DNA of 64,000 nucleotides, taken from assembly GCA_965261975.1 (NCBI GenBank), contig CBDHEC010000017.1, forward strand, positions 17,664 to 81,663, read 5' to 3'. The notes beneath the pieces are model-generated. The model was not told the DNA's origin. It worked only from the letters and a program-made list of their open reading frames with translations, and made no database searches. Positions 11,005 through 16,580 of the stretch are shown here, piece after piece. How positions within the stretch are numbered: position 1 is the first letter of the stretch; each line of letters starts with the position of its first letter. Position numbers and translations under genes: made by a program. Source of the stretch: Alphaproteobacteria bacterium (GTDB lineage Bacteria > Pseudomonadota > Alphaproteobacteria > UBA6615).

Positions 11005-11724
11005 CTAGTAGAAGAACGACGTCAGCAGGGCGTAGACCCCGAAGCCGGCCAGTACGAACGCGACGATACGGTCCATCCAGAGCTGATACGACCCGTCGAC
11101 GAACGGACGGAAGGCGTTCGCCGTCGTCGAAAGCGCGATCCACCAGAGCGCCGAACCTGCAAACACGCCAGCCACCAGGATCGAGGCGTTGCCAATTGAC
11201 CGGCCCGCCTCGGTAAACCCGAGGGTCGCCAGCAAGCCGGCGAACGCGATAAAGGTTATCGGATTGGTAATCGCCAACATGAAGGTCGACAGGAAGTCCT
11301 TCACGAGGCTGTGGGTCACAATCCGTTTTTGAATTTTTTCGTCCGTCCCGTCGGTTACCGGATGCGCCTGAACCATCGCGACCACGGTCCGCAGCGCCAG
11401 CAGGAGCAGTATGATGCCACCGACGAGGCGCAACGCCCCCTGGTGCCCGGTGATCCAGTCCTCGACTGCAGAGATGCCGAATGCGGCGATGGCGCCGTAG
11501 AGCGCGTCACCAAAAGCCGCGCCCAGACCGGAAATCAGGCCATGCATGCGGCCCTGAGACAATGTGCGCTGCACGCACAACACACCAACCGGCCCCACCG
11601 GCAATGCGAGGAAAAACCCGAACACAATGCCCTGGATCAGAATGTAATCAGTTACGGCCAAAATACTGTGTTCCTGTTCCCCGATAGGCGTCGCTGGACG
11701 GCGCGCCCTCCCCCGACCGTTCAT
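11005..11724 (-). CDS. LysE/RhtB family translocator (start uncertain)
   Basis: ALPVGPVG..C..RTL, GLGAAFGD, AITNPIT and GVFAGSALWW motifs. Confidence 0.88.
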   Translation of the reverse strand: MNGRGRARRPATPIGEQEHSILAVTDYILIQGIVFGFFLALPVGPVGVLCVQRTLSQGRMHGLISGLGAAFGDALYGAIAAFGISAVEDWITGHQGALRLVGGIILLLLALRTVVAMVQAHPVTDGTDEKIQKRIVTHSLVKDFLSTFMLAITNPITFIAFAGLLATLGFTEAGRSIGNASILVAGVFAGSALWWIALSTTANAFRPFVDGSYQLWMDRIVAFVLAGFGVYALLTSFFY

Positions 11725-11759
11725 AGCAGATTAAGGGCGCGGTAAAAAACCGGAGGAGA

Positions 11760-12638
11760 TCAGACAATCGGTTGTGCGGCGAAATGTTGCGCCGGCGATA
11801 CAATCGCGTCGCGCGCAGCAACCAGCTCGAGCTCCGTGCCGCCCCGCCGCGCCGTCTCCGAAAGAATAGCGAACACGGTGGCCACGCTGTGTTCCAGCGC
11901 CCCGGGAAGGGAGTTGCGTGCTGCGATGGAGGCTCCAAAGAGGGCGCTGAGCAGGTCCCCCGTACCATGCGGTTCCGACGGGAAAACCAGCCGGGGAGTC
12001 TCGACGCACCAGGCCTTCGAGTCGTCGAATGCGACCACCGCGATAGTCTCCGGATTCAAATCTCGATGGTCGGCGCTGGTCACCATGACGGTGGCACCCG
12101 GTCGCATGTGCGACAAAAGCTTGCGCCCGGCTGCGACAATGTCACTGACCGGCGCCGCCTTCAGTGCACCGGCTTCAAGACCACACAACAAGGACAATTC
12201 GTACAAGTTGGGCGTCGCGATGTCCGCGACGGGAAGCGCTGCCGTTCGGAAATGATCCGGCAGTGCGCCATCCACATACACGCCGGAACCGTCATCTCCC
12301 ATTACGGGATCGCAGCAATAGACCATATCGGGATTTTCGCCCCGGACCTGGCCCACGGCGCGTGTGACCACCGCTGCAAGCGCCGGATTGCCGAGATACC
12401 CGGTGACCATCAGGTCACAATTGGGAAAAACCCCGCGATGACCGAGACCGCGAATCAGGTCCGCGACGGTCTCGGGCGGCAAGACCTGACCGCCAACATC
12501 CGGATAGCCGGCATGGTTTGAGAGGACCGCCGTGGGGACGGACCAGACTTCATGCCCAAGACACTGAAGCGGGAATGTGGCGGCCGAATTGCCGACATGG
12601 CCAAACACCACCTGAGACTGGATCGAAAGAATATGCAT
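11760..12638 (-). CDS. pdxY: Pyridoxal kinase
   Basis: ILSIQSQVVFGHVGNSAA, SNHAGY, CDPVMGD, TPNLYEL and GTGD motifs. Confidence 0.93.
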   Translation of the reverse strand: MHILSIQSQVVFGHVGNSAATFPLQCLGHEVWSVPTAVLSNHAGYPDVGGQVLPPETVADLIRGLGHRGVFPNCDLMVTGYLGNPALAAVVTRAVGQVRGENPDMVYCCDPVMGDDGSGVYVDGALPDHFRTAALPVADIATPNLYELSLLCGLEAGALKAAPVSDIVAAGRKLLSHMRPGATVMVTSADHRDLNPETIAVVAFDDSKAWCVETPRLVFPSEPHGTGDLLSALFGASIAARNSLPGALEHSVATVFAILSETARRGGTELELVAARDAIVSPAQHFAAQPIV

Positions 12639-12721
12639 CGCTGGGTATCGGTTTTGCGCTTGTCGCGGCGCCAGCACAAGAATTCGTTTGACCGACGCGA
12701 AACGCCATTGATACCTGTCGA

Positions 12722-12798
12722 ATATTGATCTGCCTGGATGCGGAGCCCGGCCAAAGACGCCTGAGAAAGAGCCTGGTGCGAAAGCACCGGGCTCTTTT
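12722..12798 (+). ncRNA. Candidate ~75-nt small RNA (boundaries approximate)
   Basis: TTGACC at 12688-12693 upstream (weak -10), no ORF, ends in a plus-oriented intrinsic terminator. Contains a near-copy of 12865-12889. Confidence 0.35.
12766..12798 (+). terminator. Intrinsic terminator with GAAA loop
   Basis: aaaGAGCCTGGTGC-GAAA-GCACCGGGCTCtttt: 11-bp stem whose U-G wobble and GNRA loop favour the plus strand, followed by a T-tract. Confidence 0.8.
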
Positions 12799-12841
12799 CA
12801 TATCCCGATAGGTCTCGCACGACCCGATGCGCAGCTTGCGG

Positions 12842-13745
12842 AAATGAAGAAGGCGCCAGGTGCATGGACGCGGAGCCCGTGACGCCTGACGCCTTCCTCG
12901 ATCTTCCAACCCCGGAGTCACCCCCGGAACTTCAGATCTTTCGGGTCCCACCCGCCGGGCTTGCGCCCCGCCGGCTTCGACCCAATACCCACATCGGCAT
13001 CCAGCTTCTCATCGCTCCGCGCGTGGGACGCACCCCTGGCCGATACGTCGTCCATCGCGCTTCGCTTTTCCGGTATCGTCCGCTTTGACACGTCCCATAC
13101 CGTCCCCGAAGGGATCGAAGCCTAGGTCAGCCGCCGTCCTGCAAACCCGTCCGATTGGTCGCCGCGGCTCCGAAGAACCGGGGTTTCCGACCGGCCGTCG
13201 TCTCGAATTCCTGGCCGGCGAGAGCCTGGATAACGAAACGCTGCCGTCCTTCCTGCGCCCCGAGCCCGCCGAAGCTGGCATCCGGGCGGAGCGCGCGCTC
13301 CGAGGAGCTTGCGCTTCCGGAAAGACCGCTGGATTGCGCAACGGTGCCTTCCTTACCGGCCGACCTCTGGCTGTGTTCTTCCGAGGAAGCACACCTCCGT
13401 CCGGTCTGCCGACCGTGCCCGACCGTTGCATGGTTGCCCATGTATCGGACCGAACACATGAATGAACATCCACCGAGGCGATCGATCCCGAAGGATCATG
13501 TCCATCCGCCGACTTTCCCCCCGACCTGGCGTCACCTTGCGGCAACCCCGTTGATCCGGCGTTCGGTTCCCGTCGATCCGGCACGCCCCCTTGGTGACCG
13601 TTCCGAACCTGTCCGAGCCAACCGCAGAGCGGCTAATCCGACCCGACAGAAACCCGTCGACACGCCAATGCGTGCACGGACATGTTCGACCGCTGCCGCA
13701 AAGGCGGCAATGTCCAATCGGCCCCGGCATCCAGTTTCTTGTGCA
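12842..13745 (-). ncRNA. Candidate large (~900 nt) highly structured non-coding RNA, family not recognised
   Basis: Minus-strand stems capped by c(UUCG)g at 13107-10, 13171-74, 13270-73, 13489-92; c(CUCG)g at 13301-04, 13382-85; GCAA at 12961-64, 13434-37, 13537-40. G-U wobbles mostly favour minus. No credible ORF. A 3' hairpin at 12849-12896 is followed by UUCAUUU. Confidence 0.6.
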
Positions 13746-13757
13746 AAACTCGCCCGG

Positions 13758-13799
13758 TAGATCACAACTCCTCCACAGGTTTTCCACACGCTACCCACG
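13758..13799. promoter_or_regulatory. Four 11-bp-phased DnaA-box-like motifs
   Basis: TAGATCACA (13758), TCCTCCACA (13769), TTTTCCACA (13780; fits TTWTNCACA), CTACCCACG (13791). Confidence 0.45.
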
Positions 13800-13848
13800 A
13801 CACCGACGCTGTGCCCGTCGATCCAAGCTGTTGCGCGCGGCAGTGTCA

Positions 13849-13878
13849 TTGACGAAACGGGGGGCGGGGGTCTAAATC
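13849..13878 (+). promoter_or_regulatory. Putative sigma70 promoter of sdhCDAB
   Basis: TTGACG at 13849-54 and TCTAAATC at 13871-78, resembling the alphaproteobacterial GCTANAWC -10 element. Confidence 0.5.
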
Positions 13879-14000
13879 TGCTTTCTAGAAATACATACGC
13901 ACGTGACCGTCACGAACGACTGTTTGACGGCGCGCGGCACACGGAAAACCACCGGAACCATTTCCCTGGTTCCGGCTTTGCAGCAAAGTCAGGGGGCATC

Positions 14001-14396
14001 ATGGCGACCGACAACAGACCGCTATCGCCGCACCTTCAGGTCTATCGCCCGCAGTTCACATCGGTGCTGTCGATCCTTCATCGCATCACGGGTATCGGCC
14101 TCGCCGTCGGCACACTGCTTTTGGTCTGGTGGCTGATCGCCGCCGCCGCAGGGCCCACGGAATTTGACGCGGTGCAGAAATTCATTGGTTCGGTCATCGG
14201 GCGAATACTGCTGCTCGCCTGGAGCTTCGCGCTCTACTATCACCTCTGCAACGGCATCCGGCATCTGGTCTGGGACGCCGGCAAGGGATTCGAACTGAGT
14301 ACCGCATTCGCTTCGGCCTGGCTGGTGGTCGTCGCCGCGAGCGTTCTCACCGTCATCAGCTGGGTCGCTGGTTACGCCAGCCTCGGAGGGCTCTAG
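14001..14396 (+). CDS. sdhC: Succinate dehydrogenase cytochrome b556 subunit
   Basis: RPLSPHLQVYR, SILHRITG and HLCNGIRHLVWD motifs. Confidence 0.97.
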   Translation: MATDNRPLSPHLQVYRPQFTSVLSILHRITGIGLAVGTLLLVWWLIAAAAGPTEFDAVQKFIGSVIGRILLLAWSFALYYHLCNGIRHLVWDAGKGFELSTAFASAWLVVVAASVLTVISWVAGYASLGGL

Positions 14397-14398
14397 AG

Positions 14399-14776
14399 AT
14401 GAACATGCGCTCCCCCCTGAGCCGCGCACGCGGCCTCGGATCCGCCAAGAGCGGCACCAACCATTGGTGGGCACAGCGACTCACGGCGCTGGCGTTGATC
14501 CCGCTCGTGATCTGGTTCGTCGTGTCCATGATTATTGTCACCGGCGCCGACCATGCAGCGGCCGTCGACTTCATCAGCAGCCCGGTCAACTCGGTTCTGC
14601 TTATCCTCCTGATCGTCGCCACATTCCATCATGGGCAACTCGGCCTGACGGTGGTGATCGAGGACTACATCCACACACGCTGGCTCGAAGTGGGCCTGAT
14701 CATCGCGGTCAAAGGCGCGGCCATTTTCCTTGGCGTCGCCTCTGTCTACGCCGTGATCGCAATCGCATTGAATTAA
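14399..14776 (+). CDS. sdhD: Succinate dehydrogenase membrane anchor subunit
   Basis: [16 protein letters not shown] and [13 protein letters not shown] motifs. Confidence 0.97.
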
Positions 14777-14786
14777 GGAGTTAACG

Positions 14787-16580
14787 ATGGCGACCAACGG
14801 CGATTACGAGATCATCGACCATGACTACGACGTTATTGTCGTAGGCGCGGGCGGTGCCGGGTTGCGTGCCACATTCGGCATGGCGAACCAGGGCCTGAAA
14901 ACGGCATGCATCTCGAAAGTATTTCCCACACGCTCCCACACGGTGGCGGCTCAGGGCGGCATTTCGGCGGCACTCGGCAATATGGGCGAGGATGACTGGC
15001 GCTGGCACATGTACGACACCGTGAAGGGGTCGGACTGGCTGGGCGATCAGGACGCCATCGAATACATGGTGCGCGAAGCGATACCGGCGATCATCGAACT
15101 CGAGCATCAGGGCGTACCGTTCAGCCGCACCGAAGCGGGCAAAATCTACCAGCGCCCCTTCGGCGGCATGACCACCAACTATGGTGAAGGCACGGCCCAG
15201 CGCACCTGCGCGGCGGCCGACCGAACCGGCCACGCAATCCTGCACACGCTGTATCAGCAGTCGCTGCGCTACAACGCGGAATTCTTCATCGAGTATTTCG
15301 CCCTCGACCTGATCATGGAAGACGGCAAATGCCGCGGCGTTATGGCCTGGAACCTGGCCGACGGCACGATGCACCGCTTCCGTGGACACCTCGTATGCAT
15401 GGCGACGGGCGGCTACGGCCGGGCCTACTTCTCGGCCACCTCCGCGCACACCTGCACGGGCGACGGCAACGCGATGGTTGCACGCGCCGGACTGCCGCTC
15501 GAGGACATGGAGTTCGTACAGTTCCACCCGACCGGCATTTACGGTGCCGGCGCGCTGATCACCGAAGGATCGCGTGGCGAAGGCGGCTACCTCACCAACT
15601 CCGAGGGCGAGCGTTTCATGGAACGCTATGCGCCGTCCGCCAAGGACCTGGCCAGCCGCGATGTCGTCAGCCGTTCGATGACCATCGAAATGCGCGAGGG
15701 CCGCGGTGTCGGTGACGAGAAGGACCATATCCATCTCCACCTCGAACATCTCGACCCCGACGTGCTGGCCCAGCGCCTGCCCGGCATTTCCGAGACAGCG
15801 CGTATCTTCGCGGGCGTCGACGTCACCAAGGAGCCGATCCCGGTCCTGCCGACCTGCCATTACAATATGGGCGGCATCCCGACGACCTATCAGGGTCAGG
15901 TCCGGACCTGGACGGAGGATGATCCCGAGGCGGTCACGCCGGGCCTGATGGCCATCGGCGAGGCGGCCAGCGTGTCGGTGCATGGCGCCAACCGACTGGG
16001 CTCGAACTCGCTGCTCGACCTGGTCGTCTTCGGCCGGGCGGCGGCATTGCGCGCGGCCGAACTGGTCACGCCAGGCACGCCACATGAACCGCTTCCCGAG
16101 GGCGCCGGCGACGAGGCGCTCGCGCGCTTCGACAAGCTGCGCCACGCCTCGGGCAGCACGCCGACCGCGAAGCTGCGCCTCGAGATGCAACGCACGATGC
16201 AGAACAACTGCGCCGTGTTCCGCACCGGCGAGGTCTTGCAGGAAGGCGCAAGCAAACTGGACGAACTCTGGGGCGCGCGTGACGACCTGAGCGTGTCCGA
16301 TGACTCGCTGATCTGGAATTCCGACCTGGTCGAGACTCTCGAGCTCGAGAATCTGATGATGCAGGCGGTGATCACGATGAATGGCGCGAAGGAGCGCGAA
16401 GAAAGCCGCGGCGCACATGCTCGTGAAGACTTCCCCGATCGAAACGACGATGACTGGATGAAGCACACGCTTGCCTGGGTCGACGAGAAGGGCAAAGTCG
16501 ACCTCAAATATCGCCCGGTGCACCTCCAGACAATGACCAACGAAGTCCAGAGCTTCCCGCCGAAGGTGCGGTCCTACTAG
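14787..16580 (+). CDS. sdhA: Succinate dehydrogenase flavoprotein subunit
   Basis: [16 protein letters not shown] (FAD histidine), QFHPTG and [11 protein letters not shown] motifs. Confidence 0.98.

Follow-up and report, generated by a model that had tools for sequence, protein, structure and literature searches.

A candidate class of large structured RNA with a DnaA-box-like cluster and a complementary small RNA in uncultured marine Alphaproteobacteria

Apart from ribosomal RNA, RNase P RNA and transfer-messenger RNA (tmRNA), few bacterial RNAs that are both large and intricately folded have, to our knowledge, been described. The closest described systems, the OLE, GOLLD, ROOL and raiA RNAs, are several hundred nucleotides (nt) long, form multi-domain folds supported by covariation, contain many stable tetraloops and lack coding capacity, and we know of no function for them. 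6S RNA is a single long hairpin of ~160 nt. Here, we analyzed a stretch of 64,000 nt from an Alphaproteobacteria bacterium (GTDB UBA6615; GenBank assembly GCA_965261975.1, contig CBDHEC010000017.1, positions 17,664 to 81,663), which is called the window throughout and is numbered from its first nucleotide. The element under study lies in the gap between a pdxY-like gene and sdhC, and positions 12842 to 13675 very probably constitute a minus-strand gene for a structured RNA, hereafter the large RNA.

Like OLE, GOLLD, ROOL and raiA, the large RNA is several hundred nucleotides long, multi-domain and covarying, rich in tetraloops, non-coding and represented in RNA libraries. Unlike them, it has no match to a covariance model, it is found in marine Alphaproteobacteria rather than in Bacillota or in lake or rumen samples, and it comes with a DnaA-box-like cluster, an invariant 3′ hairpin, a complementary small RNA and a body whose length varies about fivefold. 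With 6S RNA it shares the character of a stable, standalone RNA gene that is represented in RNA libraries, but at ~834 nt it is multi-domain instead of a single hairpin.

Fold, strand and coding potential of the large RNA

The large RNA and its internal parts are as follows.

12842–13675, minus strand: large structured non-coding RNA of ~834 nt, ends predicted; covarying fold in 32 homologues, G-U/A-C asymmetry, folding z-scores
12987–13675, minus strand: core, closed by the long-range helix P1 (13675–13663 with 12999–12987; helix 2 of alignment A2)
13204–13230, minus strand: invariant block UCCAGGCUCUCGCCGGCCAGGAAUUCG, which includes GGCCAGG; nearly all columns invariant in 32 sequences
13027–13049, minus strand: invariant hairpin GACGUAUC-GGCCAGG-GGUGCGUC of the 32 long forms, with the loop GGCCAGG at 13041–13035
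12983–12943, minus strand: further hairpin domain, before the 3′ hairpin
12938–12900, minus strand: further hairpin domain, before the 3′ hairpin

We aligned 32 long forms of the element in RNA orientation with MAFFT (alignment A2), and the consensus structure predicted by RNAalifold contained 235 pairs in 39 helices. In this structure, 87.1% of the cells were paired, compared to 78.2 ± 0.3% in shuffled alignments, and 140 of the 235 pairs were changed on both sides, compared to 102.6 ± 4.4 in the shuffles; none of 500 shuffles reached the observed value in either case. When the partners were slid by 1 to 3 columns, pairing fell to 38.5 to 45.1% of cells, and the covariation score, 0.356 for the true partners, did not exceed 0.121. 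These controls overstate the support, because a single MAFFT alignment of related sequences served both to predict and to count the structure; even so, the margin over the controls is large. One of the aligned elements, that of locus L036 (genome G054), carries a run of N inside the RNA (A2 columns 415–427). Short forms of ~385 nt occur at other loci in other marine alphaproteobacterial metagenome-assembled genomes (MAGs), and ten of them were placed in a separate alignment (A1, 59 pairs). Here, 94.0% of cells were paired (88.3 ± 0.7% in shuffles) and 20 pairs had double changes (11.8 ± 2.0 in shuffles), again with 0 of 500 shuffles reaching the observed values.

The strand was chosen as minus because the alignment energies, the asymmetry between G-U and A-C pairs and the folding z-scores agree. 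The RNAalifold energy of A2 was −351.3 in RNA orientation and −244.5 for the reverse complement. Among A2 pairs with at least two Watson-Crick types, the RNA orientation had 772 G-U and 154 A-C cells, whereas the plus strand's own predicted structure had 138 G-U and 367 A-C cells. For 12840–13682 of the window itself, the minus strand folded at −425.6 kcal/mol (z = −6.11, equalled by 0 of 20 dinucleotide shuffles), compared to −330.4 kcal/mol for the plus strand (z = −1.31, equalled by 1 of 20). Loops closed by at least three pairs were also counted in 12845–13680: the minus strand had seven of the type C[UC]UCGG and seven GNRA loops, while the plus strand had none and one, respectively. Mononucleotide shuffling of the minus strand (1000 shuffles) gave corresponding means of 0.68 (maximum 4) and 2.0 (maximum 7). 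With ~834 nt and 39 helices, the RNA is in the range of large ornate non-coding RNAs, i.e., >500 nt, non-coding and with many helices supported by compensatory changes.

In the model, the core is a multi-domain structure of about 30 helices, many of which are capped by UUCG or GNRA tetraloops. Helix P1, which closes it, has 12 pairs, of which 8 are changed on both sides, and 89.6% of its cells are paired. The invariant block at 13204–13230 corresponds to A2 helix 25, where 4 of 7 pairs never vary and are thus beyond the reach of covariation, and the invariant hairpin at 13027–13049 is the top of A2 helix 32 and is retained in the distant locus L020. Because they never vary, covariation is silent on both GGCCAGG blocks as well as on the core of the 3′ hairpin. 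The window's RNA contains no tandem repeat.

The alternative that the element is a protein-coding gene or pseudogene, specifying a disordered Arg/Gly/Pro-rich protein, carries a negligible probability in our view. Minus-strand open frames of 339 to 447 amino acids (aa) are present in four relatives (in L009, 447 aa over the full length of the gap; in L010, 403 aa; in L006, 377 aa), which speaks against a purely RNA nature of the locus. However, these frames differ between species, run across the promoter and the terminators, and are of low complexity, and they look like by-products of a G-rich strand. No 3-base periodicity of substitutions was seen (the mismatch ratio between codon phases was at most 1.71-fold in 17 windows), and only 11 of 99 insertions or deletions in ten same-genus comparisons were multiples of three. 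The gap in the window comprises 1359 bases with Arg/Gly/Pro-rich open reading frames (ORFs), of which the longest two, with 191 and 201 aa, matched no Pfam family. Furthermore, the 30-nt stretch 12852–12881 had a mean identity of 98% across 17 loci in which pdxY identity falls to 38%.

The original prediction, made from the sequence of the window, had proposed a large structured RNA on the minus strand, divergent from sdhCDAB, in a 1.36-kb gap with only junk ORFs. The fold, covariation and strand tests bear this out: all nine tetraloops it named are present in place on the minus strand, the minus strand outfolds both the plus strand and the shuffles, and homologues with widespread compensatory changes were found. 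Two outcomes that it had listed as refuting were looked for, and neither a conserved ORF with a coding signature nor a dispersed repeat was found, the element being single copy in the 3.03-Mb assembly.

Control elements and the convergent small RNA

Three features border the large RNA.

13682–13710, minus strand: predicted sigma-70-like promoter of conserved layout, with −35 TTGCCG (13710–13705), a 17-nt spacer and −10 GAACAT (13687–13682)
13740–13788: three DnaA-box-like sites, at 13740–13748 (TGTGCAAAA, reverse), 13769–13777 (TCCTCCACA) and 13780–13788 (TTTTCCACA)
12849–12896, minus strand: invariant 3′ hairpin of 48 nt, followed by a U-rich tail to ~12842; probable intrinsic terminator

Positions A2, A5 and T6 of the −10 element are invariant across the 32 long forms, and a TTGNNN-N17-NANNAT arrangement with different letters is found at the same place in 10 short forms. 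Transcription of the large RNA would thus start near 13675 from a sigma-70-type promoter, a position placed from the −10 element together with P1, whose first base it is. A sigma-54 promoter picked out by eye was dropped, as it was not conserved in the alignments. The original prediction had set the extent at 12842–13745; its 5′ end is best moved to near 13675, making the proposed element ~70 nt too long, and in the part beyond 13675 we read a promoter at 13682–13710 and an upstream site cluster starting at 13740. Neither the promoter, the DnaA-box-like cluster nor the plus-strand small RNA gene described below had been mentioned in it.

The DnaA-box consensus is TTWTNCACA. Two of the three sites match it at 9 of 9 positions and one at 7 of 9. 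The cluster is nearly invariant in 30 loci and is also present in short forms, several of which have a perfect TTATCCACA. Across the 3.03-Mb assembly (G000), there are 40 strict boxes, and this is the sole place with at least two strict boxes in 80 bp or at least three relaxed boxes in 60 bp. Given that the promoter lies 55 to 105 bp downstream of the genome's only box cluster, the output of the large RNA is probably tied to the replication initiator DnaA. No other cluster was found in G000, origin region included, in an assembly that is 94.6% complete; the origin of G000 may be unassembled or may use degenerate boxes.

An origin of replication (oriC) at this site was rejected, on the basis of a GC skew without a sign switch on the 81.7-kb contig, the location of dnaA and hemE elsewhere, and the high G+C content (59–67% in the region). 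On the left of the element the skew is negative over ~30 kb and on its right over 10 kb, apart from a single bin close to zero; beyond this, on the right, five isolated bins are slightly positive. The genes dnaA and hemE are on other G000 contigs, and in two complete genomes (G019 and G052) they are 0.6 to 0.9 Mb away from the element.

In Escherichia coli, datA and DARS are clusters of DnaA boxes located away from the origin. The present locus resembles them in having a tight DnaA-box-like cluster far from the origin region. Unlike them, its cluster is placed 55 to 105 bp upstream of an RNA promoter, travels with the RNA gene across families and is known here from sequence. It could be argued that the locus acts as DNA, titrating or regulating DnaA as datA or DARS do, with transcription being secondary. 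The uniqueness of the cluster in the assembly, its distance from dnaA and hemE in the two complete genomes, and the conservation of the boxes in both long and short forms would agree with this. However, the boxes span only ~50 bp, while the other 830 nt show strand-specific covariation and occur in RNA libraries, and a DNA-level role of the boxes is compatible with an RNA gene. We therefore regard a locus acting primarily as DNA as improbable, and continue with the large RNA as the product of the locus.

At the other end of the large RNA, the 48-nt hairpin at 12849–12896 followed by UUCAUUU is present on the minus strand, as the original prediction had it. The hairpin is near-invariant in 30 to 32 loci, all of which have a T-rich tail on the minus strand; this tail is UUCAUUU in the window, and relatives have UUCUUUU or UUUUU. 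Its outer stem has 11 pairs (A2 helix 38), including an invariant U-G wobble on the minus strand that would be C-A on the plus strand, and in the short forms 4 of the 13 outer-stem pairs show compensatory changes (A1 helix 9). These features suggest that the hairpin is probably an intrinsic terminator.

Beyond this hairpin, a small RNA gene faces the large RNA.

12688–12800, plus strand: companion small RNA gene with conserved promoter and covarying terminator; predicted transcript at ~12722–12800 (~80 nt)
12688–12716, plus strand: small RNA promoter, with −35 TTGACC (12688–12693), a 17-nt spacer and −10 ATACCT (12711–12716); 36 unique loci
12732–12747, plus strand: small RNA seed GCCUGGAUGCGGAGCC, invariant
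12769–12794, plus strand: small RNA terminator, with compensatory changes at 7 of 12 pairs in 28 sequences

Short-form loci are among the 36 in which the small RNA promoter is conserved, and the G-U pairs and the U-run of the terminator are both on the plus strand. The two RNAs are convergent and non-overlapping, with 3′ ends about 40 nt apart. When compared to Rfam, the small RNA gave only weak matches, at the level of its terminator.

On the DNA, the seed and the inner sequence of the 3′ hairpin are paralogous copies with the same orientation, which makes the two RNAs complementary over 13 nt, with 12 Watson-Crick pairs and one G-U pair in the window. A second copy of the motif, 90 to 245 nt from the hairpin, was found in 37 unique loci, short-form loci included, although some short-form loci had none under the strict pattern. 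At the variable R position, these 37 loci had A/A in 20, G/G in 8, G/A in 8 (a G-U wobble) and A/G in 1; pairing is thus kept in 36, and differences between the copies are nearly always wobble-compatible. Apart from the seed's own site, its best complement in the whole assembly is the 3′ hairpin. A seed search of the genome at a lax threshold gave 142 sites, and the other sites with 13 of 13 positions paired need two to three G-U pairs. This conserved complementarity suggests pairing between the small RNA and the hairpin.

Antisense pairs such as RNA I/RNA II of ColE1 and CopA/CopT act by loop contacts. As in these pairs, a segment of the small RNA is complementary to a hairpin of a larger, neighbouring structured RNA. 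Unlike them, the partners are non-overlapping and carry convergent paralogous copies, and the locus is chromosomal, single copy and without a match in the plasmid and phage collections. Another explanation would reduce the system to a small RNA and its sponge: either the large RNA sequesters a small RNA that has other mRNA targets, or the small RNA does nothing more than destroy the large RNA. Such an arrangement would make use of the 13-nt complementarity conserved in 37 unique loci, with its mostly wobble-compatible differences, and of the hairpin being the best seed match. However, a single binding site needs no covarying fold of 830 nt with two further invariant blocks, the remaining fully paired sites in the genome depend on G-U pairs, and the second copy is missing from some short-form loci under the strict pattern. 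We consider the sponge explanation quite unlikely, and favor a large RNA with a role of its own whose 3′ hairpin may be contacted by the small RNA.

Relatives, known families and RNA libraries

The genes around the element in the window are listed below.

11760–12641, minus strand: pdxY-like gene (ribokinase-family kinase; Pfam Phos_pyr_kin)
14001 onward, plus strand: sdhC (Pfam Sdh_cyt)
13849–13877, plus strand: sdhC promoter, TTGACG-N17-CTAAAT, conserved in 30 loci

In a sample of relatives, the element was matched in 22 of 41 genomes (all 11 genomes of the genus, 21 of the 24 others belonging to the family and none of 16 from the other sampled families of the class), and in the whole family it was matched in 43 of 46 genomes. 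The 3′ hairpin pattern occurred exactly once per genome in 41 of these 46. The DNA of the gap was 95, 89 and 88% identical to that of genomes G008, G010 and G007, compared to 79, 77 and 74% for the PdxY protein. Plasmid and phage collections contained no match to the element.

A degenerate pattern of the 3′ hairpin retrieved 51 loci from the genome collection. All were from MAGs assigned to Rhodospirillaceae, Kiloniellaceae, Kiloniellales or simply Alphaproteobacteria or Proteobacteria, except L054 and L085, whose matches were inside unrelated sequence and were taken as chance. Of the true loci with enough sequence, 41 of 44 had box-like sites at the far end (by regular expression), and removal of duplicates left 50 elements of 344 to 1402 nt. 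Among 401 genomes of the class, the hairpin pattern was found in 8, from four families, while the reversed pattern used as a control was found in none. Within the range of these searches, the RNA family is restricted to uncultured marine Alphaproteobacteria of a few families.

The order pdxY-gap-sdhC is preserved in 17 loci, with gap lengths of 1334 to 1555 nt, and this could point to a long cis-acting leader, either of pdxY, which is downstream on the same strand, or of sdhCDAB. Several features argue against such a leader. A terminator hairpin and the convergent small RNA gene separate the large RNA from pdxY. As for sdhC, it has a conserved promoter of its own at 13849–13877, on the opposite strand and past the downstream side of the element, and a long sdhC leader was rejected on this ground. 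Furthermore, the short forms have no sdhC or pdxY within their 8-kb loci and adjoin unrelated genes (encoding an AMP-binding enzyme, GroEL, a Crp-family regulator, PanC, a 2-hydroxyacid dehydrogenase and a phosphoribosyltransferase). Since the flanking genes differ among families, we conclude that the large RNA is encoded by an independent gene, and consider a leader highly improbable. Separately, the 5′ untranslated region of sdhC contains a hairpin at 13951–13976 (CCGGAACCA...UGGUUCCGG) that is present in same-genus loci and was flagged as terminator-like on the minus strand (13976–13951) by a simple scan; it may be a candidate leader element of sdhCDAB.

The body of the RNA ranges in relatives from about 275 to over 1200 nt, i.e., about fivefold. 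In two loci it is a tandem array, with 9.5 units of 33 nt (L081:1339–1652) and 7 units of 32 nt (L092:4147–4372). The units within these arrays are near-identical, and each can form, as judged by eye, a hairpin with UUCG at its tip and an internal loop rich in GA. The promoter, the boxes, the 3′ hairpin and the partner small RNA persist while the body shrinks or becomes an array.

The CsrB/RsmZ-type RNAs are built of repeated hairpins with GGA-bearing loops and sequester a protein. Similarly, the present family has a varying number of hairpin modules (7 in L092, 9.5 in L081) and an independent gene, and GGAA is enriched in the large RNA sequence (12 occurrences, compared to 3.9 ± 1.9 in shuffles). 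It differs in that the loops are UUCG or GNRA and in that the fold of the window's RNA is unique, covaries and is closed by the long-range helix P1. A sequestering RNA of the CsrB/Rsm type was rejected, as the loops are not GGA-bearing; GGAA was counted over the sequence as a whole. No candidate partner protein was identified, and no search for CsrA was made.

A further possibility is that the RNA works without protein, as a self-associating ornate RNA in the manner of ROOL, GOLLD and OLE or as a catalyst, with its tetraloops and GA-rich loops making RNA-RNA contacts. The RNA is large and multi-domain with seven UUCG-type and seven closed GNRA loops, each of its two invariant GGCCAGG segments has a complement, CCUGGC, in the invariant 3′ hairpin, and homo-oligomers are reported for GOLLD, ROOL and OLE in PMC12286853. 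On the other hand, there was no match to the ROOL, GOLLD or OLE families, and a pair resembling the 11-nt tetraloop receptor (CCUAGG...UAUGG), noted by eye, was not conserved in the alignments. A body of ~275 to >1200 nt that can become a tandem array also fits multivalent binding better than it fits one three-dimensional architecture. We consider an RNA-only assembly or catalyst unlikely, and return below to multivalent binding as the preferred reading of the body.

When the region 11500–15000 around the element (both strands, E up to 10) was searched against Rfam 15, in which OLE, GOLLD, ROOL, raiA, HEARO, RNase P RNA, 6S RNA, tmRNA, SRP RNA and group I/II introns are covered, no family matched the element, in line with the absence of a known family claimed in the original prediction. 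Only three hits were obtained in this range, at 14.9 to 18.5 bits compared to gathering scores of 37 to 42; two were on the small RNA's terminator and one was inside sdhC. The same search in 8 short-form loci gave nothing on the element. A divergent housekeeping RNA was rejected, as RNase P RNA and alpha-tmRNA (257.2 bits) are on other G000 contigs. There were two full-length RNase P RNA matches (G000:C57:205801–206172 and G000:C11:8227–8639, at 327.8 and 284 bits), which points to a second copy or else to a contig from contamination, estimated at 2.8%. 6S RNA was not found in G000, and full-length matches to it were at other loci in 37 of the 46 family genomes. The literature searched, including part of PMC5069720, gave no description of this RNA; supplements, which possibly list abundant transcripts without a name, were outside its scope. 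Large structured bacterial non-coding RNAs are already known as such. As this one fits no family or mechanism that we can name, we refer to it as a new class, and what is new here is the family together with the DnaA-box-like cluster and the partner small RNA that belong to it.

Between 6 and 11% of the stretch's words are contained in 22 metatranscriptome runs. Contigs (Logan) from four of these metatranscriptomes, belonging to four studies, were aligned to the window, and the other 18 RNA runs, known only by this share of words, are treated as no evidence. In all four, contigs covered 12921–13664 with 80 to 99% identity, one of them being a 684-nt contig over 12925–13591. Relatives of the element thus occur in RNA libraries. 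Three contigs from two studies end at 13661–13664, a weak hint of a 5′ end near the predicted start. Cover was zero in the bins 12300–12902 (pdxY, the small RNA and the 3′ hairpin) and 13707–13974 (the boxes and the sdhC promoter), which is uninformative on absence because sequence that is short, rare or shared is lost from contigs. Summed word depths (up to ~2700 in run X2 on the element, compared to 0.4 to 3 on sdhC) are unfit for ranking genes. The region 13049–13199 was skipped at joints of contigs from two runs, with 80 to 161 nt missing, and shorter relatives (the g11 forms and L046) have no domains in this region; it is a variable peripheral domain, and the joints probably come from relatives without it.

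Possible function of the large RNA

Putting the parts together, we propose that the large RNA would be transcribed from its own sigma-70-type promoter near 13675 and end at the 3′ hairpin, with its output placed under the control of DnaA by the upstream boxes. By pairing with the 3′ hairpin, the partner small RNA would probably set the stability or availability of the large RNA. The body may act in trans as a multivalent scaffold or sequestering RNA, in which tetraloop-capped, GA-rich helices could bind many copies of one protein or assemble with each other. We assign this explanation as a whole, RNA gene plus mechanism, a probability of roughly 0.6; the figure is below our confidence in the gene itself, since it also takes in an inferred mechanism. 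That the body serves as a scaffold or sequestering RNA is a more tentative guess, and on its own a doubtful one. It was prompted by the way the body shrinks, grows or becomes an array while its shell stays, together with the tetraloop-capped helices and GGAA.

Several points weigh against this explanation. As to the fold, the A2 structure was predicted and counted on one alignment of kin sequences, which inflates the support given by the controls, and some helices are weak (67.7% of cells paired in H12, 68.4% in H14 and 73.3% in H17). The most conserved parts, the 3′ hairpin core and the two GGCCAGG blocks, are the very ones on which covariation is uninformative. As to the ends, the strand and limits of the transcript come from sequence analysis, the contigs giving neither strand, ends nor level. 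A simple consensus scan listed no sigma-70 sites, TTGCCG-N17-GAACAT being below its threshold, and a simple terminator scan missed the 3′ hairpin while listing 13976–13951 on the minus strand and 13357–13373 on the plus strand; the window's tail, UUCAUUU, is a weak U-tract. As to the regulators, the sites at 13740–13788 are candidate DnaA boxes, identified by a consensus from which one of the three departs at 2 of 9 positions. The small RNA seed and the hairpin are complementary as a consequence of paralogy, and the wobble bias rests on few independent events. Finally, no result here bears directly on a scaffold or sequestering function.

Each large bacterial RNA found so far, OLE, GOLLD, ROOL and raiA, has raised the question of what RNA does with or without proteins. 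For the uncultured marine Alphaproteobacteria, no such large RNA was recorded in Rfam or in the literature searched. The present family offers about 50 diverse homologues, ranging from ~275 to >1200 nt, that define a minimal form, and three handles on the large RNA: the DnaA-box-like cluster, the invariant 3′ hairpin and the complementary partner small RNA. In its widest and rather unlikely form, our proposal is that this would be the first large ornate RNA class of Alphaproteobacteria and the centre of a three-part module kept across families, consisting of DnaA-coupled transcription, a multivalent body for capturing a cellular factor or for self-assembly, and a dedicated small RNA acting as a gate on the 3′ hairpin, and that this module would link the state of replication or the cell cycle to physiology. 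If the link to DnaA is true, the large RNA would be coupled to the replication initiator, a rarity among stable structured RNAs.

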